Positions 4,832-46,298 are shown, counted from the stretch's first letter. The stretch: DNA of 46,298 nucleotides from an uncultured Dehalococcoidia bacterium (GCA_964528205.1 CAZGRI010000003.1:1-46298), one strand, 5' to 3'. Notes: generated by a model not told the origin, from the letters alone. Made by a program: numbers and translations.

Positions 4832-4905
4832 TGGGGATTCGTCTAGTGGTAGGACGACAGACTCTGGATCTGTAAGCCGAGGTTCGAATCCTCGATCCCC
4901 AGCCA
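4832..4905 (+). tRNA. tRNA-Gln (anticodon CTG), CCA encoded
   Basis: Cloverleaf folded by hand. Acceptor tggggat/atcccca with the bacterial Gln U1:A72 pair, D arm gtctagtggtaggac, anticodon stem-loop acaga-ctCTGga-tctgt, T arm cgagg-ttcgaat-cctcg, then g-CCA. Confidence 0.9.
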
Positions 4906-4923: not shown

Positions 4924-5000
4924 GGCGCATTCGTCTAGCGGCCAAGGACACCGCCCTCTCAAGGCGGAGATCACGGGTTCGAATCCCGTATGCGCTACCA
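4924..5000 (+). tRNA. tRNA-Glu (anticodon CTC), CCA encoded
   Basis: Acceptor ggcgcat/atgcgct, D arm gtctagcggccaaggac, anticodon stem-loop ccgcc-ctCTCaa-ggcgg, T arm acggg-ttcgaat-cccgt, then a-CCA. Confidence 0.9.
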
Positions 5001-5236: not shown

Positions 5237-5923
5237 ATGCCTGACTGGAAGAAGGTTATCAAGGAGATAGCAACGGCGGTCGAGGAAGCCTCACGAGAAG
5301 CCAAGGCCAAACCTCAGACCAAGAGGAAGGTCACGACCAGGAGGACACAGGAGCCGAACAGATGCCTCTTCTGGGATTGCGATACCCCAATTCGTGCCGA
5401 CCACATCCTGTGCTATGACCACTTTGGTGACCTACAAGATGGGTTGATCGACGAATGCCCCGGCTGCGGCCTAGCCAAGGATGTCCAATATGAGGTCTGT
5501 CTGGACTGTTATCGGGCGGGCGAGAGGAAGCCAAAGCCGACCAGGGCGACCGCAAAAACTAGGCAGACCAAGAAGGCGGCCTCAACCAACACCTGGTATC
5601 GCCAGGAGTATTCCCCCGCTTGGGAGGCTGGGGATGCGACGGCCAGCCAGTTCTTCGTGTACATCCTCAAACTGGACGGCGGCGGCTTCTATCCAGGCCA
5701 GACACGGGAGCTGAGAGAACGCCTGTCCGAGCATCGTGATGGGAGAGTCAAGACCACTGCGGGCAAGCACCCCAAACTCCAATGGTTTGGCATACTGCCA
5801 ACCAGGGAAGCGGCCACGAGTGTCGAGGTGGAGCTGAAGAAGCTGGTGGATAGCAACCCGCGCCAGGTGCGGCGCATGGTCATAGGGTTCAAGGACCTGG
5901 TGGAGGAGCTCGACTACAGGTGA
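5237..5923 (+). CDS. GIY-YIG nuclease-family protein with a Cys/His-rich N-terminal zinc-finger region
   Basis: 228 aa. The C-terminal half matches the GIY-YIG/UPF0213 pattern (FFVYILKLDGGGFYPGQTRELRERLSEHRDG ... EAATSVEVELKKL). The N-terminal half has CLFWDC-x8-HILCYDH plus a CPGC-x12-CLDC ribbon and a Lys/Arg-rich linker. Confidence 0.75.
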   Translation: MPDWKKVIKEIATAVEEASREAKAKPQTKRKVTTRRTQEPNRCLFWDCDTPIRADHILCYDHFGDLQDGLIDECPGCGLAKDVQYEVCLDCYRAGERKPKPTRATAKTRQTKKAASTNTWYRQEYSPAWEAGDATASQFFVYILKLDGGGFYPGQTRELRERLSEHRDGRVKTTAGKHPKLQWFGILPTREAATSVEVELKKLVDSNPRQVRRMVIGFKDLVEELDYR

Positions 5924-33044: not shown

Positions 33045-33635
33045 CTACTCCAGAATCGGGTACCTCCGAACAAGGGGTGTTTCCGCCCACAGCTTACCAA
33101 GACCCAGGGTGTAGCCCGCCTTGGCCAGCGGCAAGCCCGCGAAGATCAGCATGTACAGGATGTGCTCGTCCATGAACGGGTTGTGCTCCGGCGGCATGAA
33201 GCCCGCTGCGTACATCATTGCCGACATCGCGATCCCCGAGATCGAGGCGATGACAACCCCGATGCCCAGAACGAGCGCCAGGCCTATCGCCAGCAGTCCC
33301 ACCATGAAGAGCCAGTCAACTGCGGCGTTGCCCGCCATCGCCTTGAAGCCCTCGGCGAACGGTCCCTTCGCACCGAAGTTCAGGAAGCCGAACGTTGGGG
33401 AGCCGCCGTTGATCCACGCGCCGTCCGACGCCGTTGCATAGCCCAAACCAAAGACCTTGTCGAAGAAGGCCCACAGGAAGATCCACCCTACCCCCATTCT
33501 GAGCAGCCCCCAGACGTAGCGAGCCCTATCTTCCGCCATCAAAACGACGTTGACCTTCCCTTCCGGCATGGGTTCCGGACGCTCGACTCCCAGGCTCGAT
33601 ACCCGACCCCCTGTCCTCTCCGCAATCGTTGCCAT
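33045..33635 (-). CDS. DoxX family membrane protein
   Basis: 196 aa with four hydrophobic segments (LLRMGVGWIFLWAFFDK ... LFMVGLLAIGLALVLG...). Its stop codon abuts the acs stop with zero spacing. Confidence 0.65.
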   Translation of the reverse strand: MATIAERTGGRVSSLGVERPEPMPEGKVNVVLMAEDRARYVWGLLRMGVGWIFLWAFFDKVFGLGYATASDGAWINGGSPTFGFLNFGAKGPFAEGFKAMAGNAAVDWLFMVGLLAIGLALVLGIGVVIASISGIAMSAMMYAAGFMPPEHNPFMDEHILYMLIFAGLPLAKAGYTLGLGKLWAETPLVRRYPILE

Positions 33636-33872: not shown

Positions 33873-34769
33873 CTAGAGGGACCTCGTCGCCAGGAGCACC
33901 TCGACTTTGACCTCGTCCTCTACCTGAACGATCCCGCCGATGTTCGGCGGTCTGATATCCAGGTCGGCCCATACGAAGCTGGTGCGGCCGACAATGAAGA
34001 TGACGTCCCCGTCGTCCCGCGCCTCCACGTCGAACGAGACGGCGAACTCGGCGCCGCGGATAGCCAGTTTCCCTCCGATGGTTGCGGACACCGCATCACC
34101 ATCTGTGAAGCCTGACGGCAAGGAGCCGATGTCATCGACGGTGAAGACGGCCACAGGGTCCCCGGGGAACATGGTCCGACGGATGTAGCTGTCGCGGCGT
34201 GATTGGTCGCTGCTCAGCTGGTGAAGGTCTATCTCGAACACCGAGGGGCGGCCGTCCAGGTGCAGTTCGCCCGATAGTGCCGTCGTCCTGACAACGGCGT
34301 CATTGGGCAACGGGAGTCGAGCCAGCTTCTCCCGGACGGTGAAGGTGGCCTCGGACCCCTCGCCAACCGTGAAGGTCACCCCCTCCACCTGCCCCTGAGC
34401 TCTGGCGACGTTTGATGGGGCGGTCGTGCTCGTCGCGGTCGGGGGCACGGCGGAGGACGTTGGGATCGACGTCGCCGTGCTCGCCTGCTCCGGGGTCGCG
34501 GTGGGTGCCTCGGCCGTCGTTGGGCTGGGAGCGACCGCGGTAGTTGCCGTGGGGGTCGACGTCTCCTCAGCGGGCAGCATGCCGGTCGCTGCCGGCACGG
34601 TCGTCGCTGTCGCAGTCGGCGTGGCCGTATCGGCTGTCACCGGAGTCTGAGCCGAATCAACGGGCGTGTCGGACGAACCGCAGGCTGTCAGAGCCACGAA
34701 CGCGATGCCGACCATAAGGCCGAACGTTGCACCGCTGCGTACTCGAAAACGCCTCGTTGAAGGCCCCAT
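33873..34769 (-). CDS. YceI-like domain lipoprotein with a Thr/Pro/Ala-rich linker
   Basis: The start at 34769 (MGPSTRRFRVRSGATFGLMVGIAFVALTACGS) is preceded by GAGGAGAGG. The C-terminal YceI fold pattern is present (TFTVREKLARLPLPNDAVVRTTALSGELHLDG...SDQSRRDSYIRR...). The 123-aa Arg-rich extension of the track ORF is rejected. Confidence 0.78.
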   Translation of the reverse strand: MGPSTRRFRVRSGATFGLMVGIAFVALTACGSSDTPVDSAQTPVTADTATPTATATTVPAATGMLPAEETSTPTATTAVAPSPTTAEAPTATPEQASTATSIPTSSAVPPTATSTTAPSNVARAQGQVEGVTFTVGEGSEATFTVREKLARLPLPNDAVVRTTALSGELHLDGRPSVFEIDLHQLSSDQSRRDSYIRRTMFPGDPVAVFTVDDIGSLPSGFTDGDAVSATIGGKLAIRGAEFAVSFDVEARDDGDVIFIVGRTSFVWADLDIRPPNIGGIVQVEDEVKVEVLLATRSL

Positions 34770-34789
34770 GAACCTCTCCTCTGAGCTAG

Positions 34790-35383
34790 CTACGATTCTA
34801 GACCGGCGCCGCGCTCCACGGCGGCCGTGGCCCGTGGGGGGAGCTTGAGCTCGCCGCTCTCCTCGTCTCCAATGCCTGAGAGGCCGATCCCGACCCCAAG
34901 GGCGACCGCGACCGCGGCTACCGCCACCCACCATCTCAAGACGGAGACGCGGCCGCCTGCGACCGTCAGGACCGCGATCAGCGGAAAGGCGATAGCGGCC
35001 AACGGCAAGGTATACGAGACGACACGGTCGAGCTGGGTCTCGCCCAGAAAGGCCGCCACGGCCGTGAGCCCGAATCCCCCTGTCCAGAGCACGGCGAAGG
35101 CGATGTGGCGGTTTCGGTTTCCGGCAAGGACGCGCCACAGCACACCGGCCACCAGACCGGCGAACAGCGCGCCGGCGGTTACCGTCGCGCTGTTGAACAG
35201 GATGTCGTCAGGCGACCGAAGGGGTAGTGAGACCAGGGACTCGATCACCGCGGCCACCGAACCCGCCACGAGGCCTGCCACGACGGGGCTCTCCGTCGAT
35301 CCGCGACCGCTCTCAGCCCCTGTCTTCACGGGCTCACGACTCAACTCCCTCAACTCCAGGGGACCGCCGTGGGCAGCCCTCAC
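34790..35383 (-). CDS. Hypothetical integral membrane protein
   Basis: 197 aa with about five hydrophobic helices. Its GTG start overlaps the stop of the upstream gene (GTGA), which suggests translational coupling. Confidence 0.5.
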   Translation of the reverse strand: MRAAHGGPLELRELSREPVKTGAESGRGSTESPVVAGLVAGSVAAVIESLVSLPLRSPDDILFNSATVTAGALFAGLVAGVLWRVLAGNRNRHIAFAVLWTGGFGLTAVAAFLGETQLDRVVSYTLPLAAIAFPLIAVLTVAGGRVSVLRWWVAVAAVAVALGVGIGLSGIGDEESGELKLPPRATAAVERGAGLES

Positions 35384-36027
35384 TGTTGACCAGGTCTCCC
35401 CTCTCCACCGCCGCCAAATCCGCCGCCGCCGAAGCCGCCTCGTAACCCGCCGCCGAAGCCCTGAGCACCCTCAGGCACCACGAAGACCGTCGACGCCGCC
35501 AGCGTGCCGTCCTCCGCTCGCTCGCCGGTAACGGTCAGGCGCATCCCCTCGGTCAGGTCTCCGACCTCCGCCAGGGCGGTGATCTGTATCCTGGTGTCGG
35601 GGCCAACAGTTGCCTGGAGCGGCCCTTGCTGGGTCGTGATGGTCACGGTGCCGTCCTCGATCTTCTCGATGATTCCGGTGACACCCGATCCGCCGCCGAA
35701 TCCCAGGCCTCCGGGGGCTTGTCCCGCTCCGCCCTGCCCGAACTGGTCCTGCAGCTGCTGACGCAGCTCCGTCAGTTCCTCCTGGCTGGCCTCGCCGGAC
35801 TGGACCCTCTGCCGGAGGTCGGCCAGCGTCTGTAGTCCGCTCCCCTGCGTCGGCTGGCTCTGGACCTGGGACTGGACGCCCGTCGGTTGCACCACCTGGG
35901 CGATGCTCTGGGTGTCATCGTCGCCCTGGCTCTTGCCCAGCGCAACACCCCCGAAAAAGGAGCCGCCCAGCACTCCACCCAGGACCAGTGCGCCCGCGAG
36001 CATCAGAATGAAGCCTTTGTTGCTCAT
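35380..36027 (-). CDS. Membrane-anchored or secreted DUF5666-like protein with glycine-rich tails
   Basis: 215 aa. N-terminal TM/signal (GFILMLAGALVLGGVLGG), a Gln-rich linker, then a beta-rich core (GIIEKIEDGTVTITTQQGPLQATVGPDTRIQI...GMRLTVTGERAEDGTLAASTVFVV). The C-terminus is GGLRGGFGGGGFGGGGEGRPGQQ. AGGAGG RBS. Confidence 0.6.
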   Translation of the reverse strand: MSNKGFILMLAGALVLGGVLGGSFFGGVALGKSQGDDDTQSIAQVVQPTGVQSQVQSQPTQGSGLQTLADLRQRVQSGEASQEELTELRQQLQDQFGQGGAGQAPGGLGFGGGSGVTGIIEKIEDGTVTITTQQGPLQATVGPDTRIQITALAEVGDLTEGMRLTVTGERAEDGTLAASTVFVVPEGAQGFGGGLRGGFGGGGFGGGGEGRPGQQ

Positions 36028-36060
36028 TGCCTTGTTCCTCCTGTCACGTGTGCCTTCTGC

Positions 36061-37272
36061 CTACTCGTAGCGCAGCGCCTCTATCGGGTGGAGGTTGGCC
36101 GCCCGAACCGCCGGGTATATGCCGAAGAAGAGACCGATGGCCGCCGAGACTATCAGCGCGAGGACGGTGATGTCGCTCCCGGCCGCCGTCTGGAACGTCT
36201 GACCTCCGAGGTTACGGCCGTCCAGGAGCCGCGAAAGCGTTATGCCCAGGACCGCTCCCGCCCCGCCACCACCCAGGCTCAGCAGAGTCGCCTCCGAGAT
36301 GAACTGGTACAGAATATCCCGCCGCTTCGCGCCCATGGCCTTGCGGATGCCGATCTCTCGTGTGCGCTCTGTGACCGACACCAGCATGATGTTCATGATC
36401 CCGATGCCCCCGACCAGCAGCGATATCCCGGCGATGGCGCCCAGGAAGATCACGAACGTCTCCTGGGTCTCCTCCAGGGTGTCGATGATCTCCTGCTGGC
36501 TGGTTATCGAGAAGTCGTCCTCGCCAGTGATTCGATGGCGGAGCCGCAGAGCGGCGGCGATCTGCTGGAGGGCATCCTCCTTGGCGTCTTCGTCGGCGAC
36601 CTGGACGTTAACGGTCTGAACCGTTACGCCGCCCTGCGTCGTGCGGGTTGAGGCGAGCCGGTAGTAGACCGTGGTTATGGGAACAAGAAGCTGGTTGTCC
36701 AGGTTCCCCAGGGCGCTCCCGCCCTTGCTCTCCAGCACACCGACGACCGTGAACTGGCGGCCGTTGATCCGGACGGTCTGGCCCACGGGGTCACGGAAGC
36801 CGAACAGGTCCTCAGCCGCCTGTGAACCCAGCACCGCGACCTCCGAGATCCCTTGCACGTGCGCCGCGGAGATGAACTGTCCGGTCGCGACCTCGTGGTT
36901 CCGCACCGTCTGGTACTCGGGGGTCACGCCGACTATCTGGGTGGCTGTGCTGTTTCTGCCGGCCACGACCTGGCCTGCGGTGTTCAGCTCGGGCGCCACC
37001 GCCGTCACGGCGGGCGCGACGCCCGGCTCCACCAGGGCATAGGCGTCTTCCAGCGTAAGACTCTGTGCGCCGCCGGTCGGCCGCACGAACAGCAGGTTGG
37101 AGCCCAGGGACTGGATCCTCGACGTTATGGCCTCCTGGGCCCCGCGTCCCACCGACATCGTCGATATCACCGCGGCAACGCCGATCACGATGCCCAGGAG
37201 GGCCAGCCCCGTCCTTAGCTTGTTGCCGGCCAGGGAGGACAACGCGGTGGAGAAGATGGTCAGAGGGCTCAT
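36061..37272 (-). CDS. ABC transporter permease, MacB/FtsX type
   Basis: 403 aa. N-terminal TM helix, a roughly 220-aa extracytoplasmic MacB_PCD-like domain, and a C-terminal FtsX 3-TM bundle (GGIGIMNIMLVSVTERTREIGIRKAMGA). Confidence 0.9.
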   Translation of the reverse strand: MSPLTIFSTALSSLAGNKLRTGLALLGIVIGVAAVISTMSVGRGAQEAITSRIQSLGSNLLFVRPTGGAQSLTLEDAYALVEPGVAPAVTAVAPELNTAGQVVAGRNSTATQIVGVTPEYQTVRNHEVATGQFISAAHVQGISEVAVLGSQAAEDLFGFRDPVGQTVRINGRQFTVVGVLESKGGSALGNLDNQLLVPITTVYYRLASTRTTQGGVTVQTVNVQVADEDAKEDALQQIAAALRLRHRITGEDDFSITSQQEIIDTLEETQETFVIFLGAIAGISLLVGGIGIMNIMLVSVTERTREIGIRKAMGAKRRDILYQFISEATLLSLGGGGAGAVLGITLSRLLDGRNLGGQTFQTAAGSDITVLALIVSAAIGLFFGIYPAVRAANLHPIEALRYE

Positions 37273-38006
37273 GCTGTCTCCTGTTCCCCGCCGGCGGAGA
37301 CGGCCTGGAGGGGGTCCGCAATCCGCTCATCTCTGACTACGGCGCCGTCCAGCATCGAAACGACACGGCCCGTATGAGCGGAGATGTCACTCTCATGGGT
37401 CACGATGATAACCGTGATGCCCTGTTCCCGGTTCAAACGCTGGAGGATGGCCATGATCTCCTGGCTTGACCGGCTGTCGAGATTGCCCGTCGGTTCGTCG
37501 GCCAGCAGGATTGAAGGGTCCTTCACCAACGCTCGGGCGATACCGACGCGCTGCTGCTCGCCGCCAGACAGCTCCGTCGGCCGGTGGCCGGTCCTCCGCG
37601 CCAGGCCGACCTGCTCCAGCGCGTCGAGTGCGCGGCCTCGACGGTCGCTCCCGTTGCCGTAGAGCAGGGGAAGCTCGACGTTTGACAGTGCCGACAGCCG
37701 GGGAAGCAGGTTGTAGGTCTGGAACACGAAGCCGATCTTACGGTTGCGGACGTCGGCCAGGCGACCGTCGCCCAGGGAACCTACGTCCTCGCCCTCCAGG
37801 ACGTAGCTCCCGGCCGACGGTACATCCAGGCAGCCTATGATGTTCATCAGCGTCGACTTGCCGGAGCCGGACGGGCCCATTATCGCCGTCAGCTCTCCCT
37901 TCCGGATCGACAGATCGACCCCTCGCAGCGCGGCAACCTCAACGTTGCCCAGGTTGTAGACCTTGGCAACGCTCTTCAGGTCGATTATCGTCGGATGATC
38001 GTTCAT
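37269..38006 (-). CDS. ABC transporter ATP-binding protein (MacB/LolD-like)
   Basis: Walker A GPSGSGKST, signature LSGGEQQRV, Walker B ILLADEPTGNLD. I preferred the ATG at 38006 (MNDHPTIIDLKSV), which lies 16 nt after the adaptor stop. The alternative start at 38084 would overlap the adaptor by 62 nt. The stop overlaps the permease start. Confidence 0.9.
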   Translation of the reverse strand: MNDHPTIIDLKSVAKVYNLGNVEVAALRGVDLSIRKGELTAIMGPSGSGKSTLMNIIGCLDVPSAGSYVLEGEDVGSLGDGRLADVRNRKIGFVFQTYNLLPRLSALSNVELPLLYGNGSDRRGRALDALEQVGLARRTGHRPTELSGGEQQRVGIARALVKDPSILLADEPTGNLDSRSSQEIMAILQRLNREQGITVIIVTHESDISAHTGRVVSMLDGAVVRDERIADPLQAVSAGGEQETA

Positions 38007-38022
38007 CTGACGCACCGCTCCG

Positions 38023-40347
38023 CTATCGACCACCGACGCTGGTGGGACGGCCTCCGCCGAAGCCACCGCCGCCGAATCCGCCACCGGGACGGAAGCCTCC
38101 CCCGAAGCCGAAACCGGTGGTACTGGCCTGCTCCGCCTGCATCACAAGCTGCTCGCCCTCGGCAAGCCCACCTTGGACCACTGCCCAGAAGTCATCGCTG
38201 TTGCCCAGCACCACCGGTCGTTCTTCGATCACACCCGCGCTGATGACGCGCACCAGCGGCTGATCGAAGGTGCCGTAGAGGGCCTGTAGCGGCACCAGCA
38301 AGACGTCCCGGTCCTCGCGGATGACGACACCCGCGACGGCGCTCAGTCCCTCGGGAAGCGTGATCCCCGCCGGCACCTGCACTTGAATCCGAATCGGGTA
38401 GCTGACCACGCCCTGCTGGCTCCTGGCGGCTGAGCCAACATCGGAAACGACGCCTTCCAGCACCTGCCCCGCCAGGGCGTCCATCGTCACCGTTGCCGAT
38501 GCTCCCACCCGCACGTACAGCACGTCTATCTCATCCACTATCCCATCGACCTCGACAACAGTTGGATCGACCACCTCGAGGACCGGCGTGTTGGGATTGA
38601 TGAGACTGCCCGCCTCGACGTTGATCAGCGACACGACGCCGTCCATCGGGGCCGTAAGGATCGCGTTAGCCATGTCCGTCTCGGCATCGCTCAGAGCAAC
38701 CAGCGAAGATGCTACCTCGGTCTCCCGAAGCGCTATCTCCAGCGGGTCCGGGCTGTTCCTGATCTCATCGAGATCTTCTTCGGCCTGCGTCAGGATGGCC
38801 TGCGCGACCGTTACCTGCTGTTGTTTCGCTTCCAGCTCCATGGGATCGGCGCCGGCGACTAGCTCGCCAAGGTCCTCCTCGGCCTTCGCGAGATCGGCCT
38901 CCGCGAGGTCCACCTGCCGCTGCTTGCTGTCAGCTTCGAGCGTGTCCGGTCCGCCTAGTAGCTCAGCGATCTCTTGCTCTGCCACGTCCAGGTTGACAAG
39001 CAACAGCGCAAGCTGCTTCTCCTTGGCCTCTGTCTCCAGAGCGCCGGCCGCCTCGTAGAGGTCGGTCAGGTCCTGCCGTTCGGCGCTCAGAGCGTCCTCG
39101 GCACGTGCCACCGCGATAGTGGCGCTGTCGACGGCCTTGGCCTGCTGAGTCCTCGTGGAGGCCAGGTCGGAGATCGCCTTGCTGTGGGCGTCCCAGGCAG
39201 TCGACAGCTCCTGGGAGACGCAGGCCCCTTGATGCGGGACCGCACCGTTCGCGCAGTCGGCGGCGATGGCGCCCGGATAGAAGTTCAGCCAGGTATATAT
39301 CACTGACTCGTCCCACTGAGTGGCCGGATCGTCGACGGCGATGCCCTGGACGGCCACCCACGGCGCCAGGTCATAGTACCGAGAGTTCGGGTCGAACAGC
39401 GACGCCAGGTCCACGCCCCATGACGCCAGAAGGGCATCCGGGTCCAGAGCTTCATCCGTCTCACTCAGGTCGACCCCAAGCCATCTCTCGAAGGCCTCCC
39501 TGTACCCGTCTCGGGCAGCATCGGCGGCATCCTGCTTCGTCTGCACGTTGTCGTTCCATGTGTCGGTGGCGAGCGCCAGGTCCCGTTGAGCGTTTGCCAG
39601 CGTGGTGGCGGCGGAGTCGATCTGCAACTGTGCGGTGTCGACATCCTCGTCGCTGGGCCCGCTCCTGAGAGAGTCCAGCGCGGCCGTTGCATTGTCGACC
39701 GCCAGCCGGGCGTCCGTGACCGCGGACTCGGCCCTGGCTACCTCCTGTGCGGTAGGGTTCAGGAGCCCGTCGACGGCGTCCCGAGCGGTCTGGAGCGCCA
39801 ACGCGGAGCCGGCGAACAACGCTTCGGCCTGTGCGATCTGCTGCGACGTTGGCTGCAGCTTCTCCACCGCGTCCTCGGCGTTCCTCAGAGACAGCCATGC
39901 ACTGGACACGTCGGCCTCGGTCTGTGCCAGCTCGAGGGCGGTATGGGGGTCTCTGGCCTTCACCAGGGCCTCGTTGGTCTTGTCCAGATTGACCTGAGCC
40001 TGGGCGACGGCCTTCGCCAGCGACGCCACGGTTGCTGCATCGAGTGTCACAAGGTTCTGGCCCTGGACCACGGACTGCCCCTCGTCCACCAGCACCTCTC
40101 CGATGGCGCCCTGGACGCCGAAGGTCAGCGTCTCTCGGTTGGGGTAGACGAGGCTACCGTTTGTGGAAACCTCGTTCACGAGGTCGCCGGACCGAACGAC
40201 GATGAGCTGCTGGTCTTCCTCGAGGTCGGCGCTATCGGTGCCGGTCGTCAGGGCGTAGGCTCCGTAGGAGGCGCCGACGGCCCCGAAGACGACCGCAACC
40301 AGGACGCCGATCTGCCAGGCCCTCAGGCTCCTTATCGCGTCTAGCAT
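38023..40347 (-). CDS. HlyD/MacA-family periplasmic adaptor (membrane fusion protein), unusually long at 774 aa
   Basis: N-terminal TM helix, a lipoyl-like half (VSTNGSLVYPN...GEVLVDEGQSVVQGQNLVTLD), and about 460 aa of helical repeats with a roughly 100-aa insert. These are followed by the second lipoyl half (ILTAPMDGVVSLINVEAGSLI), beta-barrel and MP domains, and a C-terminal GFGFGGGFRPGGGFGGGGFGGGRP tail. Confidence 0.85.
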   Translation of the reverse strand: MLDAIRSLRAWQIGVLVAVVFGAVGASYGAYALTTGTDSADLEEDQQLIVVRSGDLVNEVSTNGSLVYPNRETLTFGVQGAIGEVLVDEGQSVVQGQNLVTLDAATVASLAKAVAQAQVNLDKTNEALVKARDPHTALELAQTEADVSSAWLSLRNAEDAVEKLQPTSQQIAQAEALFAGSALALQTARDAVDGLLNPTAQEVARAESAVTDARLAVDNATAALDSLRSGPSDEDVDTAQLQIDSAATTLANAQRDLALATDTWNDNVQTKQDAADAARDGYREAFERWLGVDLSETDEALDPDALLASWGVDLASLFDPNSRYYDLAPWVAVQGIAVDDPATQWDESVIYTWLNFYPGAIAADCANGAVPHQGACVSQELSTAWDAHSKAISDLASTRTQQAKAVDSATIAVARAEDALSAERQDLTDLYEAAGALETEAKEKQLALLLVNLDVAEQEIAELLGGPDTLEADSKQRQVDLAEADLAKAEEDLGELVAGADPMELEAKQQQVTVAQAILTQAEEDLDEIRNSPDPLEIALRETEVASSLVALSDAETDMANAILTAPMDGVVSLINVEAGSLINPNTPVLEVVDPTVVEVDGIVDEIDVLYVRVGASATVTMDALAGQVLEGVVSDVGSAARSQQGVVSYPIRIQVQVPAGITLPEGLSAVAGVVIREDRDVLLVPLQALYGTFDQPLVRVISAGVIEERPVVLGNSDDFWAVVQGGLAEGEQLVMQAEQASTTGFGFGGGFRPGGGFGGGGFGGGRPTSVGGR

Positions 40348-40460
40348 CTTTCTCTGCCCCCTTCAGTGGCCCTTGGCGCAAGACCGGTGCCGTTAGTCCG
40401 GCTGCTGTCGACAGGTGTGTCATCTAGAGTTTGGAGTCTTGACGGACTCGCGGTATTCAC

Positions 40461-40504
40461 GTTGTAGCAGGAGAATGTTGAGAAAGTATGAAGTGTCTAT
40501 GAAG
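40461..40504 (-). promoter_or_regulatory. Regulon box D: three phased half-sites plus a -10-like hexamer upstream of the adaptor/ABC operon
   Basis: Minus strand reads CTTCATA-gaca-CTTCATA-cttt-CTCAACA (40504-40476), then 9 nt, then TACAAC (40466-40461). It sits between the kinase stop (40532) and the adaptor start (40347). Confidence 0.55.
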
Positions 40505-40531
40505 GACAGTGTCTGATTTCGGGTGAGTGGC

Positions 40532-41896
40532 CTAGTCGGTGCGGGCGTGCATCGGCAGGGTGAATACGAAGAGGCTGCCCTTGCCCTGCGTGCTCTCGAC
40601 GCTGATGGTCCCTCCATGCGCCTCAACGAGCTGCTTGGCGATGGTCAAGCCCAGGCCGGCTCCGCCGGTTGTGCGTGCTCGAGAAGGATCGGCCCGGTAG
40701 AATCTCTCGAAGACGTATGGCAGCACCTCGGCTGGTATGCCCTCTCCCGTGTCGGCCACCGTGACGCTCACATCGGGACCAGCGGTCCGCGTCGACACGG
40801 TGACGCTCCCGCCCGAAGGGGTGTGCCGTATGGCGTTGTCCAGAAGATTGCCGACCACCTGTGTTATCCGAGTCCTGTCGATCTCAGCTACGGGTAGACG
40901 ATCGTCGCCATCCAGGCCAACCGATACGCCTCCGGCGTCGGCCCGTGGTCGGAACGCCTCCACCGACGCCGCGACGAGGTCGTTGACGGAGTACGGCTGT
41001 CGGTCCAGCCGAAGGTCGGGTGACTCGGCCTCGGCCAGCGCCCTCAGGTCCTCGACCAGGTGGGCGAGGTTCAGGCCCTGCTTGTGTATCGTCTCGATAG
41101 TCGCCGCATCCGCGGGCAGGACTCCATCGCGCACGGCCTCCACATAACCCTGTATGTTCGACAGGGGTGTCCTGAGCTCGTGGGCCACGTCCGCGACCAT
41201 GTTGCGCCGTTGACGCTCTGAGTTCTCCAGGCCGTCGGCCATTACATTGAACGTGCGTCCCAACTCGCTGATCTCGTCCCGGCCCCTGGCCGGTACCCTC
41301 TGGGAGAGGTCTCCGCGACCCAGACGGTCCGCGGCAGAGTTCAGTGTTCTGACCGAGGAGAGCACACGGCGCGACATCAAGGAGATCAGAAGGATCCCTC
41401 CCGCGCCCGTGGCAAGCCCGGCCCATAGTAGCGATCGGTTTGTCTGTTCGGCGAATCTGGTCAGCGGGGGCTCCGGTAGCTCATCCGGCACATCGCTGGC
41501 CGTCACGATGACGAACGCGACCTGACGCCCTCTGCTCATGACCGGGTAGGGCACCCCTTCGCGGCCGCGCCTGATGGGAGGCGGCCTTACCCCGATGCCT
41601 GTGTCACCGACCACCCGCCCGGTGCTGTCGGTGACGACGATGCGCCGGCTGTAGAGTGAGCCGGCCCTCTCGACGACCTGCTGCAGTCCCGTCCACTCGC
41701 CCCGGGCGTCGTAGAACTGTGCCACCATTCGGTGGACGCGTTCCTTTCGCACCTCCTCGAAGTCCCGCTGGATCCGCGCGACCTCTTGTCGGGCCTGGTA
41801 CCCGATATACCAGCTGACGGCACCCAGTGCCAGGGCGAGGACCAGCGCGAAGCCAACCATGAGCCGGAATTGGAGGCTGAAGAACCACCTAGGCAT
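40532..41896 (-). CDS. Sensor histidine kinase (two TM helices, HAMP, HisKA, HATPase_c)
   Basis: The ATG at 41896 (MPRWFFSLQF) overlaps the regulator stop within ATGCCTAG. H-box ADVAHELRTPLS, N-box LLDNAIRHTP, G-boxes DTGEGI and GGAGLGLTI. The track start at 42013 lies inside the regulator gene and is rejected. Confidence 0.9.
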   Translation of the reverse strand: MPRWFFSLQFRLMVGFALVLALALGAVSWYIGYQARQEVARIQRDFEEVRKERVHRMVAQFYDARGEWTGLQQVVERAGSLYSRRIVVTDSTGRVVGDTGIGVRPPPIRRGREGVPYPVMSRGRQVAFVIVTASDVPDELPEPPLTRFAEQTNRSLLWAGLATGAGGILLISLMSRRVLSSVRTLNSAADRLGRGDLSQRVPARGRDEISELGRTFNVMADGLENSERQRRNMVADVAHELRTPLSNIQGYVEAVRDGVLPADAATIETIHKQGLNLAHLVEDLRALAEAESPDLRLDRQPYSVNDLVAASVEAFRPRADAGGVSVGLDGDDRLPVAEIDRTRITQVVGNLLDNAIRHTPSGGSVTVSTRTAGPDVSVTVADTGEGIPAEVLPYVFERFYRADPSRARTTGGAGLGLTIAKQLVEAHGGTISVESTQGKGSLFVFTLPMHARTD

Positions 41897-42578
41897 CGCC
41901 GAACCTGTACCCCACGCCGTAGATAGTGTGAACGTAGCGGTCGTCCTCGCCCTCTGCCTCCAGCTTCCGCCGCAGGTTCGCCACATGGGCGTCGACCGTC
42001 CGGTCGAAGCCATCGAAGTCGAACCCGAACACGCGGTCGATGATCTGCTCGCGCGTGAAGGTCCTGCCCGGCTCCCTGATCATCATGGCCAGGAGGCGGA
42101 ACTCAGTTGGGGTCAGCCGGACCTTGGCGGCCCCTACGTGGACGTCCCGCAGGCGAAGATCGACCTTAATGTCTCCGTAGTCCAGCTCCTTCGGTCCGCG
42201 CTCCATGGCCTCCCGGGCGGTCCGTCTGAGCACAGCGCGTACGCGGGCGGCGAGCTCCTTGGGGCTGAAGGGCTTGGTCACGTAGTCATCGGCCCCCAGG
42301 TCCAGGCCCACCAGCCGGTCTTGCTCCTCAACCCGCGCGGTAAGCATAACGATGGCGACGTCCGACTCCTCTCTCAGCGCTCTGCACACGTCCAGTCCAT
42401 TCATGCTCGGAAGCATCAAGTCGAGGACGACCAGGTCGGGCCTCGCCTCGCGGGCCAGCTTCAGCCCTTCGAGCCCGTCCGTGGCGGTCAGGACCTTGTG
42501 GCCGTCACGCTGAAGGTACAGGCCCACCAGCTTGACCGTATCCGAATCGTCCTCGACTATCAGAACTTTGCTAGACAT
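41889..42578 (-). CDS. OmpR/PhoB-family response regulator
   Basis: 229 aa. Receiver domain (VLIVEDD...DLVVLDLMLP...KP) and a winged-helix output domain (LTPTEFRLLAMMIREPGRTFTREQIIDRVFG...VDAHVANLRRKLE...IHTIYGVGYRF). Confidence 0.93.
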   Translation of the reverse strand: MSSKVLIVEDDSDTVKLVGLYLQRDGHKVLTATDGLEGLKLAREARPDLVVLDLMLPSMNGLDVCRALREESDVAIVMLTARVEEQDRLVGLDLGADDYVTKPFSPKELAARVRAVLRRTAREAMERGPKELDYGDIKVDLRLRDVHVGAAKVRLTPTEFRLLAMMIREPGRTFTREQIIDRVFGFDFDGFDRTVDAHVANLRRKLEAEGEDDRYVHTIYGVGYRFGDA

Positions 42579-42614
42579 TCCTCTCGAACCCCAAGGTGGG
42601 CTATCAGGCGGTCC

Positions 42615-43982
42615 CTAAGCGGCGCCTCGGTCGGGCCTGGGTTGGAGAGTCAGCTCGACGGTCGTGGGCTCACCGTCTCGCAGGAGCTCGACTGTCAGTT
42701 TGTCCCCGGGCCTGTTGTTCTCCGACAGGTACGAAATCAGATCGTTCATCCCCTCGATTGGAGTCCCGTCCAACCTTATTATTACATCTCCGCCCACGGG
42801 ATACTCAACGCCTTCAAGCCTGGTGGTCCCCATGGCGGCTACCAGGCCGGCGTCATCTGCGGGACCACCATTGGCTATCCCGACAATCAGCGTCCCCCGG
42901 GTATCTGGAGTAAGCCCGTTGGCCTGCGCCAGTTTTCCGTTCAACGACGCCCCGCTGATGCCGAGATAGGCGTGCTGGTACTCGCCGTCGGCCACCAGCT
43001 CGGGCACTATCCTCTTGGCAGTGTTGATGGGAATGGCGAACCCTACTCCGGCGCTCACGCCGCTGCTGCTTATGATCTGGGCGTTGATGCCGATGACGTC
43101 GCCGAGCCGGTCCAACAGCGGCCCGCCGGAGTTGCCAGGGTTGATAGGGGTGTCGGTCTGGATGATCTGGGAGTTGGAGTAGCCGTTGGCTCCCGGCACG
43201 GCGCGCCCTAGGGCGCTGACGATGCCGCGCGACATGGTGAACTCCTGGCCGAACGGGTTGCCTATCGCCAGGCTAAGCTGGCCCACCCTGAGCTCGGCGC
43301 TATCCCCAAGCTCCAGGGCCTGGAGGGCCAGTTCCGAAGTATCGATCTTCAGGACCGCCAGATCGGAGTCGGCGTCGCTGCCCAGCACTTCGGCCTCGAA
43401 CTCGGAGCCGTCGGCGAAGACGACCGTGACCCGGTCCGCCTCGGCGATCACGTGATGGTTGGTGACGATATGTCCTTCGCCGCTCCATACGAAGCCGGAC
43501 CCCTCGCCGGCAGGGGCAAACCCCTCACCGCGAGACGGACCGCCGAAGCGTCCCTGCGACGCCGGGACATTCCTCTCCACTCTGATGTAAACGACCGAGG
43601 GCAATGCCGACTCGTAGATGTCGCCCAGCACCTCCTCGTAAGCCGCCACGATATCGTTCGAGGTAAGCGAGTCCAGCGCGGCCTCAACCGACTCGACCTC
43701 AGAGTCCGTGGGCACGACGACCGCTGCGGAGTCCTCGGCTACCGGGGCAACCTGGATCTCTGTGATCGCCTCGATGGGGCTCGCCTCTACGCGAGTGAGA
43801 TCGGCTACCTCCGGTACGGCGATCGGGGAGGAGACGACCTCTACGATGGCGGGCGCCGACTCCAAAACGTTCGTGTTTGAAGGCTCGTCCGACAGAGAAG
43901 CGACCGTCGCTCCTCCGCACGCTACGAGCGCTACCGAGGCGATTGCCCCAAGGGCCACAGCTACGCGTCTGATTCTCAACAT
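42615..43982 (-). CDS. HtrA/DegP-family (S1C) serine protease with PDZ domain; predicted lipoprotein
   Basis: 455 aa. Lipobox ALVACGG. Catalytic triad context HIVTNHHVI, DSDLAVLKI, NPGNSGGPLLD. C-terminal PDZ. AGGAGGGGAGG RBS. Confidence 0.9.
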   Translation of the reverse strand: MLRIRRVAVALGAIASVALVACGGATVASLSDEPSNTNVLESAPAIVEVVSSPIAVPEVADLTRVEASPIEAITEIQVAPVAEDSAAVVVPTDSEVESVEAALDSLTSNDIVAAYEEVLGDIYESALPSVVYIRVERNVPASQGRFGGPSRGEGFAPAGEGSGFVWSGEGHIVTNHHVIAEADRVTVVFADGSEFEAEVLGSDADSDLAVLKIDTSELALQALELGDSAELRVGQLSLAIGNPFGQEFTMSRGIVSALGRAVPGANGYSNSQIIQTDTPINPGNSGGPLLDRLGDVIGINAQIISSSGVSAGVGFAIPINTAKRIVPELVADGEYQHAYLGISGASLNGKLAQANGLTPDTRGTLIVGIANGGPADDAGLVAAMGTTRLEGVEYPVGGDVIIRLDGTPIEGMNDLISYLSENNRPGDKLTVELLRDGEPTTVELTLQPRPDRGAA

Positions 43983-44013
43983 CTTCCTCCCCTCCTGATC
44001 GGAACTTCCTAAA

Positions 44014-44057
44014 AGCCTAACCCGGAACTGTTAAGGAATTATGAAGGCCGTATTAAG
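44014..44057 (-). promoter_or_regulatory. Regulon box A: three phased half-sites plus a -10-like hexamer upstream of htrA-RR-HK
   Basis: Minus strand reads CTTAATA-cggc-CTTCATA-attc-CTTAACA (44057-44029), then 9 nt, then TAGGCT (44019-44014). The hexamer is 32 nt upstream of the htrA ATG. Confidence 0.55.
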
Positions 44058-44174
44058 CTACATCTGCACAAGTTTCGGGCTGCGTGCGTCGGCGCCGGGA
44101 CAAAAGAGTGCCCCGGCCAATGGGCCGGGGCACTCTCAGGAGGCTGGGCCCGATAATGGGCCCGGAAGACGGCC

Positions 44175-44636
44175 CTAGAGTGAGGTAGTGTCGGGGGCCT
44201 GAGGAGCGGCCGGAGGCGCCTGGAATCCCCGCCACGGGAATCCACGACCGTGGAAACCCTTGCCGTGGGTCCGGGGCCCACCGCGGAAACCGTGTCCTCC
44301 GAAGCCGGGCACGCCGAAACCGTGGGTAAGGCCCTCGGGCATCGCGTTCATCCAGTCTTCGAGATCGTCACGCTGCTCCGGTGTGATCCGGCCGCTCTCC
44401 TCTAGGGCGTCCAGCCTGGCCTGGATCTTCTCTGCCCTCATCTCGGCGACGGCCTGGTCGAAGGCGTCCTGGACCTGCGACTCCTCCAGTCCCAGGATCG
44501 AAGCGACCCGTGAGATCATGCCTTTCACGGGGGAGTCCCCATTGGGGTCGGCAGTCTGTGCCAGTACCGCGCCACCGCTGATCCCCAGGGCCACCACCGC
44601 CGTCAGGACCGAAACTATTACCCAACGTCTCTTCAT
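44175..44636 (-). CDS. Secreted helical protein resembling DUF2680/YckD and CpxP/Spy-type envelope proteins, with a Gly/Phe/His-rich tail
   Basis: The ATG at 44636 (MKRRWVIVSVLTAVVALGISGGAVLAQ) is preceded by AGAGGAGGG. The helical core carries an LTxxQ-like motif (RITPEQRDDLEDWM). The tail is HGFGVPGFGGHGFRGGPRTHGKGFHGRGFPWRGF. Confidence 0.55.
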   Translation of the reverse strand: MKRRWVIVSVLTAVVALGISGGAVLAQTADPNGDSPVKGMISRVASILGLEESQVQDAFDQAVAEMRAEKIQARLDALEESGRITPEQRDDLEDWMNAMPEGLTHGFGVPGFGGHGFRGGPRTHGKGFHGRGFPWRGFQAPPAAPQAPDTTSL

Positions 44637-44682
44637 TGTCACACCCTCCTCTTTGTTGGTCCGGCTAGTCCGTTCGTTTAAC

Positions 44683-44715
44683 ACGATAGCGAAAGAGTGT
44701 TAAGGAAGTTTGAAG
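44683..44715 (-). promoter_or_regulatory. Regulon box B plus a -10-like hexamer upstream of the DUF2680/CpxP-like gene
   Basis: Minus strand reads CTTCAAA-cttc-CTTAACA (44715-44698), then 9 nt, then TATCGT (44688-44683). Confidence 0.55.
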
Positions 44716-44726
44716 AACTCGCCCGG

Positions 44727-44921
44727 CTACACCGCGGACCGCGAGACCGACCTCCGTGGCCGCATGACCATTCCCTGCAGGCAGGAGGACGACAGCGCCG
44801 CCTTTTCCGTCTCCGTCAGGCAGTACCCGCAGTGAAGACAGGTCAGGTACGCGCCGTATATGTCCTGGTTGTCGGCCACGTCGCCGTCTATGCAACGAGG
44901 GCAGCATTTGAGCCAGAGCAT
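44727..44921 (-). CDS. Small zinc-ribbon protein (64 aa)
   Basis: The ATG at 44921 (MLWLKCCPRCIDGDVADNQDIYGAYLTCLHCGYCLTE...) is preceded by GGAGGG. The CPRC-x17-CLHCGY arrangement is a classic 4-Cys ribbon. Confidence 0.5.
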   Translation of the reverse strand: MLWLKCCPRCIDGDVADNQDIYGAYLTCLHCGYCLTETEKAALSSSCLQGMVMRPRRSVSRSAV

Positions 44922-45000: not shown

Positions 45001-45033
45001 ATGTTAGCGAACGACTGTTAAGGAAATATGAAG
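45001..45033 (-). promoter_or_regulatory. Regulon box C plus a -10-like hexamer upstream of the zinc-ribbon gene
   Basis: Minus strand reads CTTCATA-tttc-CTTAACA (45033-45016), then 9 nt, then TAACAT (45006-45001). Confidence 0.55.
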
Positions 45034-45182: not shown

Positions 45183-46239
45183 ATGCCGAACGTCGCCGCC
45201 AGAGACCTTCACGCCCTGGTCAAGGATATCCTCGTGGCAGCCGGCGCCAGCGAGACGAACGCTGAACGGATGGGAGAGGCGCTGGTCTCGTCCAACATGG
45301 CCGGCGTCGACACCCACGGGGTCGTCCCCCTGGCGCTCTACGTCTCCCAGATAAAGAGCGGCGAGCTTGTACCGACGGCATCGCCCGAGATCGTCAAGGA
45401 AACGGCCAACTCGGCGCTGGTGAGGGGCAACTGGACCTTCGGCCACGTGGTCGCCGAGTACACAATGAGGCTGGCCATCGACAAGGCCCGAGACCACGAT
45501 ATCGGAATCGCCAGCATGATGGAGTCGGGCCACATCGGCCGGCTCGGCGAATACGCCGAAATGGCCATTGCGGAGGGAATGATCGGATTGGTGCTGGCGG
45601 GCGGATACGGCGCGGAGGTCCCCACCGCGGTCCCGTTTGGCGGCCGGGAGGCTGCCCTGCACACCAACCCTGTATCCATGGGCTTTCCCGCTGGTGACGA
45701 GACGCCGATGTTCTTCGACTTCGCTACCACGACCATCGCGGGCACAAAAGCTAACCTGGCCAAAAACCGCGGCGAGCAGGTGCCGCCGGGCAGCATGATC
45801 GACGACGAGGGCAACTTGACTACGGACGCGTCCGGCTGGCCCGATAGGCGTGCCCTCACGGCCTTCGGGCAGCACAAGGGCTACGCGATCATGCTGGCCA
45901 ACGAGGTGATGGGCAGGATACTCTCCGACGCCGACTCCTACGCCGACACGGAAAAGGGAGGCGTCACCATGCGGCACCAGGGCGTGACGATGATCGCCAT
46001 CAAGGCCGACCTGTTCCAGCCGATGGCCCGTTTCGGAGGCCGGGTCGACGACCTGGAGCGTAAGATGCGGGCCCGTGCCGCCGGCCAAAGGGTTTCAGGA
46101 GGTGCTGGTGCCCGGCGACCTGGAGGCGAAGGCCAGAGAGTCCAGGAGCAGGGACGGCGTCCCCGTCATGGACGACATCTGGGCGTCGCTGACCGGGCTG
46201 GCCGAGGAGTTCGGGGTGGCCTTGCCGAGCGTATCCTAA
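45183..46239 (+). pseudogene. Ldh2-family (malate/L-lactate/ureidoglycolate) dehydrogenase with an apparent +1 frameshift at a C-run near 46072
   Basis: Translation from the ATG at 45183 is typical of the family (MPNVAARDLHALVKDILVAAGASETNAERMGEALVSSNMAGVDTHGV...HKGYAIMLANEV...). After ...DDLERKMRA the frame becomes Arg/Gly junk with no stop in the window. The +1 frame reads VPPAKGFQEVLVPGDLEAKARESRSRDGVPVMDDIWASLTGLAEEFGVALPSVS*, which is the expected family C-terminus. The listed minus ORF 45162..46088 is a shadow. Confidence 0.8.
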
Positions 46240-46245
46240 ATCGAC

Positions 46246-46298
46246 GGGCCGGTAGCTCAGTCTGGTCAGAGCATCGGACTTTTAATCCGAGTGTCCAG
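46246..46298 (+). tRNA. tRNA-Lys (anticodon TTT), truncated by the window end
   Basis: Acceptor gggccgg, D arm gctcagtctggtcagagc, anticodon stem-loop tcgga-ctTTTaa-tccga. The T arm is cut off. Confidence 0.85.

Follow-up and report, generated by a model that had tools for sequence, protein, structure and literature searches.

A stretch of DNA of 46,298 nucleotides (nt) from an uncultured Dehalococcoidia bacterium (GCA_964528205.1, CAZGRI010000003.1:1-46298; hereafter the window) carries, at positions 33873–44921 on the minus strand, eleven consecutive genes encoding an HtrA-family protease, a two-component system, a MacB-type exporter and several small, secreted or membrane proteins. We consider it probable that this locus is a lineage-specific envelope-stress and detoxification regulon of marine Chloroflexota (Dehalococcoidia) which is governed by one two-component system. 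In function, such a regulon would be analogous to the combined BaeSR-MdtABC-Spy and CpxAR-CpxP-DegP responses of E. coli, built here around a MacB pump.

An operator-like box is shared by all promoters of the locus. Two 7-bp direct repeats separated by 4 bp (cTTCAnA-N4-cTTAACA) make up this box, at a spacing of 11 bp, and TAnnnT follows 9 nt later. When at most one mismatch was allowed, TTCATANNNNNTYAACA matched four times in the whole 46-kb window versus 0.05 matches expected, and all four matches are on the minus (coding) strand, one in each promoter-bearing gap. Box 1 (TTCATATTTCCTTAACA, 45016–45032) lies 95 nt before the ATG of a zinc-ribbon gene, is accompanied by the −10-like hexamer TAACAT and scores 34.4 bits with the position weight matrix (PWM) described below. 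Box 2 (TTCAAACTTCCTTAACA, 44698–44714) is located 62 nt before the ATG of a small-protein gene, with TATCGT after 9 nt, and box 3 (TTCATAATTCCTTAACA, 44029–44045) 47 nt before the ATG of the HtrA gene, with TAGGCT after 9 nt. Box 4 (40476–40504), 129 nt before the ATG of the adaptor gene and with TACAAC after 9 nt, comprises three tandem half-sites at 11-bp spacing (CTTCATA, CTTCATA and CTCAACA, separated by GACA and CTTT).

At each site, the TAnnnT hexamer stands downstream at a fixed distance, and the 9-nt interval implies that the box overlaps the −35 position, like pho boxes. Repeat geometry, position and conservation appear to match those of OmpR/PhoB-class operators (tandem direct repeats, ~11 bp, over −35). 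Based on co-location, repeat geometry and co-conservation, the response regulator encoded in the locus is the predicted box-binding protein, and since a box also precedes the unit with its own gene and that of the kinase, the sensor pair would control its own expression. An initial annotation of this DNA had described the locus as box-controlled, and the same box was indeed found at all four of its transcription units.

These units are defined by the box before each of them and by a terminator after the small-protein gene: (i) zinc ribbon; (ii) small protein; (iii) htrA, response regulator and kinase; and (iv) adaptor, ATPase, permease, DUF5666-like protein, membrane protein and YceI. The intrinsic terminator (44100–44137, minus strand) has a 15-bp perfect stem followed by UUUU and ends the small-protein transcript; its folding z-score is −4.55, and an equally good fold appeared in 0 of 200 shuffles. 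A generic promoter and terminator scan detected neither the boxes nor this terminator, which was confirmed by folding. Gene calls and Pfam bore out the eleven co-oriented minus-strand genes, at or beside the positions initially annotated and with the domains then assigned to them; gene starts were taken as start codons with Shine-Dalgarno-like sequences upstream. The tight packing claimed for the last six genes was also observed: gaps of 16 nt (adaptor to ATPase), 33 nt (permease to DUF5666 gene) and 20 nt (membrane protein to YceI) alternate with an ATGA overlap of the ATPase and permease genes and a GTGA overlap of the DUF5666 and membrane-protein genes. The last overlap becomes a 50-nt gap if an alternative start of the membrane-protein gene holds, which lies 54 nt further in, is used by other gene callers and gives a product of 179 amino acids (aa). 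The G+C content is ~64%, and the DNA occurs in marine/seawater metagenome sequencing runs.

Related loci were drawn from metagenome-assembled genomes (MAGs) of Chloroflexota/Dehalococcoidia. Homologues of the DUF5666-like protein were collected, four were examined on long contigs, and one genome per species was scanned, which yielded 25 loci; the whole comparison set comprised ~32 loci, and the genome-scan alignment contained 10 closer sequences. A PWM trained on the four sites of the window and three of locus L008 was scanned on 465 kb of the other loci, both strands. At a score of at least 20 bits, 9 matches were obtained versus 0.2 in shuffles, and at 15 bits or more, 15 versus 1.8. All of the top ten matches are on the coding strand and stand 48–165 nt before orthologues of the small-protein, regulator, adaptor or zinc-ribbon genes. 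Five additional box sites were found in L039–L041, and the box-bearing loci include two (L013 and L021) whose pump has no adjacent sensor. No box was found before free-standing membrane-protein/YceI pairs, indicating that this pair is not generally in the regulon.

A different repeat was noticed where the small gene stands directly before the pump without the sensor pair (L018, ~5640–5660; L023, ~4840–4860). Here TGACAC-N5-TTAYCA, also an 11-bp-spaced repeat, lies upstream, possibly as an alternative operator recognized by a regulator whose gene is located elsewhere.

The window proteins were mapped by tblastn onto the 29 loci of at least 5 kb. The genes for adaptor, ATPase, permease and DUF5666 protein are co-oriented and tightly spaced in all 29, wherever sequence is present. 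The small protein was detected in 10 of 29 loci, immediately upstream of the regulator-kinase pair or of the adaptor gene (L018, L023). The pair itself was detected in 9 of 29 and has the small gene directly upstream in 9/9 loci with both (the near-identical L008 and L009 being counted apart in these figures). A search starting from the small protein placed it directly before the pair in 3/3 contexts, two of which run on into the four pump genes.

The remaining members are less frequent. HtrA was found in 5/29 loci (upstream in L010, directly downstream of the DUF5666 gene in L024–L027), YceI in four (L010, L014, L024, L025), the 197-aa membrane protein in two and the zinc ribbon in one; even at relaxed thresholds zinc-ribbon homologues appeared in L010 only, again behind a box. 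HtrA, YceI and the 197-aa protein recur adjacent in differing order (L010, L014, L024–L027). In L010, the 197-aa protein and YceI are fused in frame into a 390-aa product, and a second such fusion was found (P0174). A search starting from the 197-aa protein placed it directly before a YceI gene in 3/3 contexts with no pump nearby, and the membrane-protein/YceI pair is an autonomous cassette that also occurs elsewhere without the pump.

Thus the locus is layered: an invariant four-gene pump, a frequent trio of small protein, regulator and kinase, and an optional HtrA, membrane-protein/YceI pair and zinc ribbon. All-against-all clustering of open reading frames (ORFs) from the related loci revealed no further conserved partner. 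The gene-neighbourhood analysis proposed in the initial annotation gave a divided answer: the pump core and part of the set recur in relatives, and a single fixed 11-gene system or gene order does not, only the four pump genes being invariant. Likewise, most members of what had been called a coherent extracytoplasmic set are neighbours in other Chloroflexota in permuted orders, and the exception is the zinc-ribbon protein, which is cytoplasmic and recurs once.

Genes for DDE transposases, recombinases and integrases often lie beside the module or within it in several loci (L008, L009, L010, L017). An insertion element splits the kinase gene of L010, and the L017 permease gene is interrupted. 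This suggests mobility or decay of the module in some genomes.

The sensor pair comprises an OmpR/PhoB-family response regulator (41889–42578, minus strand; Response_reg and Trans_reg_C domains) and a sensor histidine kinase (40532–41896; HAMP-HisKA-HATPase_c), whose genes overlap by 8 nt. The kinase has transmembrane (TM) helices at residues 13–31 and 156–174, with an outside loop of ~124 aa between them. Its best named relative is BaeS (BaeS_SmeS model, 244.6 bits versus a cut-off of 500), and the regulator scores 215.8 bits against BaeR (NCBIfam equivalog cut-off 380). Orthology to BaeSR was rejected, as both scores are far below the equivalog cut-offs, and the pair was assigned to a generic OmpR/PhoB-class system.

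The HtrA-family serine protease is a lipoprotein (42615–43982; lipobox LVAC) encoded by the first gene of the htrA-regulator-kinase unit. Trypsin_2 (5.9e-38) and a single PDZ domain (PDZ_2, 1.7e-12) were detected, and the catalytic triad motifs NHHV, DLAV and GNSGGP place it in the HtrA/DegP family.

The small, secreted or anchored, DUF2680-like protein (44175–44636, 153 aa) has a signal/anchor helix, a three-helix core (residues 36–98) with an I-T-P-E-Q motif, and a disordered tail rich in Gly, His, Phe, Arg and Trp which ends in ...TTSL. A structure model is confident for the three-helix core alone. The window protein itself has no DUF2680 (PF10925) match up to E=10, and 9 of 28 aligned homologues match it (best 2e-6). 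Every homologue has 1–5 His residues in its Gly-rich tail. The C-terminus is T-S-L/F in all four HtrA-adjacent lineages (the window, L024, L025 and L026) and in 0/9 loci without an adjacent HtrA. A T-S-hydrophobic C-terminus has the form of a PDZ ligand. Together with the PDZ domain of HtrA, this ending is a hint of proteolytic feedback like that of CpxP and DegP, drawn from a small sample in which L024–L026 are related.

The pump begins with a membrane-fusion adaptor of MacA/YknX type (38023–40347, 774 aa; HlyD_3 and HlyD_D23 domains), followed by an ABC ATPase (37269–38006) and a MacB-type permease (36061–37272; MacB_PCD and FtsX domains). The adaptor aligns with MacA structures over residues 51–155 and 467–743, which together with its HlyD domains identifies it as a membrane-fusion protein with lipoyl, beta-barrel and membrane-proximal domains and an alpha-hairpin, and YknX-type adaptor domains are recorded in Pfam for homologues of the locus proteins. 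Its hairpin has ~310 extra coiled-coil residues compared with MacA. In an alignment of 20 orthologues, the coiled-coil segments vary in length, the tip insert (~285–400) is conserved and rarely gapped, and Cys365 and Cys376 at the tip are kept in 80% of sequences. The ATPase (ABC_tran, 5.1e-33) has Walker A (GPSGSGKS), signature (LSGGEQQR) and Walker B (LLADEPT) motifs. The permease (MacB_PCD 2.1e-47, FtsX 1.5e-20 in Pfam) aligns end to end with MacB structures (5lil, E=1.8e-55) and with a pneumococcal homologue (2.3e-37); with an FtsX-type bundle of four TM helices and a MacB periplasmic core domain between TM1 and TM2, it is of MacB type (type VII ABC exporters). No gene for a TolC-type outer-membrane channel was found in the window locus or in any related neighbourhood, consistent with a monoderm, YknXYZ-like form.

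The fourth pump gene encodes a DUF5666-like protein (35380–36027, 215 aa). Against DUF5666 (PF18914) the window protein reaches 16.8 bits (E=0.0086; threshold 27), and 27 of 32 homologues match (best 1.4e-6). This partner family is large, with at least 147 clusters at 50% identity (E≤1e-30). Four parts make up the protein: a TM helix with a conserved glycine zipper (GGxLGGxFxGGxALGKSQ), a hairpin of helices, a beta domain and a GGFGGG tail. In the structure model the beta domain has five strands (residues 119–184, the ~60-residue region of the DUF5666 profile); a Foldseek search with this model returned nothing at E<1, and OB-fold proteins including YgiW appeared at chance level. Comparison with the small protein revealed a common helical motif of 28 columns (...LDALVESGRITQEQADE... 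versus ...LRQRVQSGEASQEEL...; hhalign probability 94.6%, E=6.9e-8), in which the hairpin signature L-x-x-L-V-x-S-G-x-I/S-T/S-x-E-Q is shared. Gly-rich disordered tails are a further common feature, conserved across the families: GGFGGG in the adaptor, whose family has Gly/Phe-rich tails in general, and in the DUF5666 protein, and Gly/His/Phe/Arg in the small protein. The DUF5666 protein is a putative pump subunit.

The polytopic membrane protein (34790–35383, 197 aa, 4–5 TM helices) has no Pfam family. It is an obligate partner of YceI and is followed by a YceI-domain lipoprotein (33873–34769; lipobox LTAC, Thr/Pro/Ala-rich linker), which scores 27.9 bits with PF04264 over residues 139–292 (gathering threshold 23.7). 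At the other end of the locus, the optional zinc-ribbon protein (44727–44921, 64 aa, CPRC...CLHC) lacks a signal peptide.

Just downstream of YceI, on the same strand, lies a gene for a 196-aa membrane protein (33045–33635) whose resemblance to DoxX is faint (E=2.2). It is preceded by a sigma-70-like promoter (ATGTCA-18-TATAGT, 33747–33718) and by a hairpin. This gene was considered as a twelfth member and rejected, given its own promoter, a PWM score of only 10.7 and its absence from related loci. Divergent from the zinc-ribbon gene is a malate/L-lactate dehydrogenase-like gene (45183–46245, plus strand; Ldh_2-type, assigned by eye). Its frame changes near 46040: the frame from 45183 is stop-free into a tRNA gene at 46246, and an authentic-looking C-terminus (...VLVPGDLEAKARESRSRDGVPVMDDIWASLTGLAEEFGVALPSVS*) lies in another frame, which would reflect a frameshift, a pseudogene or an assembly error. 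Three tRNA genes were noticed on the plus strand; two are adjacent (4832–4902 and 4924–4997), and the third (46246–46298) is cut by the window end.

Based on these data, the following mechanism is proposed for an envelope-stress and detoxification regulon. The kinase would detect a disturbance outside the cytoplasmic membrane via its ~124-residue outside loop, and the phosphorylated OmpR-type regulator would bind the tandem 7-bp repeats, at 11-bp spacing, over the −35 of the four promoters. It would then switch on the zinc-ribbon gene, the monocistronic gene for the DUF2680-type secreted protein, htrA together with the regulator and kinase genes (positive autoregulation), and the six-gene operon encoding a MacB-type exporter followed by the membrane-protein/YceI lipid-binding pair. 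The exporter would be composed of the extra-long adaptor, the ATPase, the permease and the DUF5666 membrane subunit, and may act on the outer leaflet and wall zone by removing a membrane-active compound or peptide; a comparable function has been proposed for YknXYZ and pneumococcal MacAB. HtrA would degrade damaged exported proteins, and the small protein might act as a stress-induced chaperone, as a feedback modulator of the kinase, or as both. We infer activation rather than repression, and also what the small protein does and which kinds of stimulus and substrate are involved.

In one metatranscriptome, near-identical assembled contigs cover YceI, three parts of the adaptor gene, the regulator/kinase junction, HtrA and the entire small gene, and the small-gene contig is the deepest (11.7 versus 2–5 for the others). 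At best, these contigs indicate that transcripts are present; co-regulation cannot be demonstrated from them.

Several observations weigh against the proposed regulon. Approximately half of the related loci carry the pump without an adjacent two-component system, indicating that the pump can work under other control. The sources are MAGs, and close relatives among the loci (L018, L022, L023, L032 and L033; L024–L027) mean that the counts overstate independence. The metatranscriptome contigs were assembled at low depth, and carry-over of DNA is possible. Instead of forming part of the pump, the DUF5666 protein might serve as a substrate or as a factor associated with the wall. The small protein has one I-T-P-E-Q motif, whereas CpxP, Spy and ZraP are recognized by two LTXXQ motifs in a helical hairpin; its match to Pfam Metal_resist is below threshold (E=0.038, 14.6 bits versus 29.2), a profile search of the PDB gave chance-level matches only, and Foldseek with its model returned nothing at E<1. 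The label "CpxP-like" in the initial annotation was therefore abandoned, being at best an analogy. More generally, gene content, linkage, the box and the presence of transcripts are computational results, and it is predicted that the regulator binds the box, that it acts as an activator and that the units are co-induced.

A different view of the pump is that it serves to build the envelope, in the manner of LolCDE or DevBCA. It would extract or export an endogenous lipid, glycolipid, lipoprotein, or wall or S-layer component, with YceI as lipid carrier and the DUF5666 protein as substrate adaptor, and the two-component system would match supply to growth. The MacB superfamily does include LolCDE and DevCBA, and matches were found between the adaptor and DevB (2.1e-17) and between the permease and LolC/E (1.1e-17), but MacB is a much closer match to the permease than LolC or DevC is. 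YceI has a lipid/polyisoprenoid-binding fold. Its gene sits in the pump operon here, yet it is linked in only five lineages, the membrane-protein/YceI pair being mostly located elsewhere without a box. The very long adaptor with its disulfide-capable tip could reach an outer layer, and the core is widespread, given the at least 147 clusters of its DUF5666 partner, and often lacks a nearby sensor, as expected of a housekeeping machine; on the other hand, the tight association with HtrA, with a small protein of stress type and with a BaeS-like system under autoregulation is more in keeping with inducible stress control. We regard an envelope-building exporter as unlikely.

Metal homeostasis in the manner of ZraPSR or CusRS was also considered. 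In this case Zn, Cu or Ni would be bound in the wall zone by the His/Gly tail of the small protein, with the kinase as metal sensor and the MacB pump as exporter of metal ions or of a metal chelate. Matches of the kinase to cztS_silS_copS (1e-59) and of the regulator to cztR_silR_copR (1.4e-49) point in this direction, but these scores are far under the cut-offs of the metal models and under the BaeS and PhoB scores. The adaptor weakly matches IhpB, the adaptor subunit of a divalent-metal exporter, and faintly CusB and CzcB, and sub-threshold Metal_resist matches occur in both small-protein families. The His residues in the Gly-rich tails of all small-protein homologues recall the tail of ZraP, whereas His is almost entirely absent from the Gly-rich tails of adaptor and DUF5666 protein. 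HtrA and YceI have no obvious metal role, and ORF clustering revealed no metal-binding domain, P-type ATPase, CDF transporter or copper oxidase that recurs in the neighbourhoods. A function in metal homeostasis is distinctly unlikely.

That the four pump genes alone form a unit, with the other members (HtrA, zinc ribbon, small protein and YceI pair) merely nearby, is very improbable: order and membership do vary, most related loci lack HtrA, YceI and the zinc ribbon, and the membrane-protein/YceI pair is autonomous elsewhere, but the box result largely refutes a chance neighbourhood, the same box standing at HtrA, zinc ribbon, small gene and pump and nowhere else in 46 kb, and in addition the accessory genes recur as co-oriented neighbours in three or more different arrangements and the small and DUF5666 proteins have their helical motif in common.

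A bolder version of the envelope-stress regulon may also be entertained, although we think it quite unlikely. Pump and sensor might be physically coupled via a docking module common to the small protein and the DUF5666 subunit, so that Cpx-like proteolytic feedback and Bce-like sensing of the pump state would be combined, having evolved independently in a monoderm, deep-branching phylum. The MacB machine would then span the envelope and have a new architecture, with a double-length adaptor bearing a disulfide tip and with a fourth subunit.

A sensor-controlled pump, protease and small chaperone follow Bae/Cpx logic, and no new principle is involved. The value of the locus lies in the testable roles it offers: DUF5666 as the invariant fourth component of a large MacB-exporter family (at least 147 clusters), and DUF2680-type proteins as the small secreted partner of a two-component system. 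The long adaptor with its Cys-pair tip also bears on the role of MacB adaptors in bacteria without an outer membrane. In addition, a compact regulon with a recognizable operator becomes available for Chloroflexota/Dehalococcoidia, an abundant marine and subsurface group with almost no genetics and a poorly understood envelope.

No description of this arrangement was found in the literature searched, in agreement with the initial annotation, whose author did not recognize it as a described system. The parallels listed in that annotation are each partial, as had been said, but the closest one, the E. coli Bae response, had been missed, which lowers the novelty. In E. coli, the pump is encoded in the same operon as the two-component system (mdtABCD-baeSR), Spy is strongly induced as a target of its own, and the Bae/Cpx targets include Spy/CpxP, DegP, the mdtABCD-baeSR operon and yceJI (PMC2731931). 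Like BaeSR, which acts on mdtABCD-baeSR, spy and acrD, the locus described here has an OmpR-type system contiguous with a pump, whose induction is shown in E. coli and proposed here; a small, stress-induced, extracytoplasmic helical protein as a separate target; and a small regulon with few operator sites (PMC2731931). The differences are that the pump is of the ABC MacB type instead of RND, with no outer-membrane channel at the locus, that the small protein is DUF2680-type instead of Spy, and that HtrA and YceI are included.

CpxAR-CpxP-DegP likewise combines a sensor pair with a small periplasmic modulator and an HtrA-family protease, and E. coli yceJ-yceI is also CpxR-responsive. In contrast, the Cpx genes are scattered in E. 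coli and clustered here, the small protein fails the tests for CpxP, and feedback inhibition by a modulator and its proteolysis are hypothetical in our case. In MprAB-PepD of mycobacteria and CssRS-HtrA/B of Bacillus, a two-component system adjoins, and presumably controls, an HtrA-type protease as it may do here; neither of them includes a pump or a small modulator, whereas HtrA is an optional member of the present one, found in 6 of ~32 loci.

Two further systems share the transporter. In the BceRS-BceAB type of peptide-antibiotic resistance module in Firmicutes, a MacB-superfamily transporter is genetically coupled to, and co-evolves with, a two-component system (PMC5985334), and such coupling is seen here too. 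A Bce-type module was nevertheless rejected: the Bce permease has 10 TM helices and a large outside domain, acts without an adaptor and is paired with an intramembrane-sensing kinase without a sensor domain, whereas here the permease has four, an adaptor is present and the outside loop of the kinase comprises ~124 aa. YknWXYZ and pneumococcal MacAB (Spr0693–0695) are monoderm MacB exporters with an adaptor, and the Bacillus system has an extra membrane protein (PMC5985334). Common to them and the present pump are an ATPase that is a protein of its own, a permease with four TM helices and a MacB periplasmic core, a membrane-anchored adaptor and the lack of an outer-membrane partner, and the extra membrane protein co-transcribed in Bacillus has its counterpart in the DUF5666 gene of the pump unit. 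The extra protein is single-pass DUF5666 here and Yip1-type YknW there. Unlike both exporters, the locus described here has an adaptor about twice as long (774 versus ~370–400 aa) with a conserved Cys-pair tip insert, together with a dedicated two-component system and a box.

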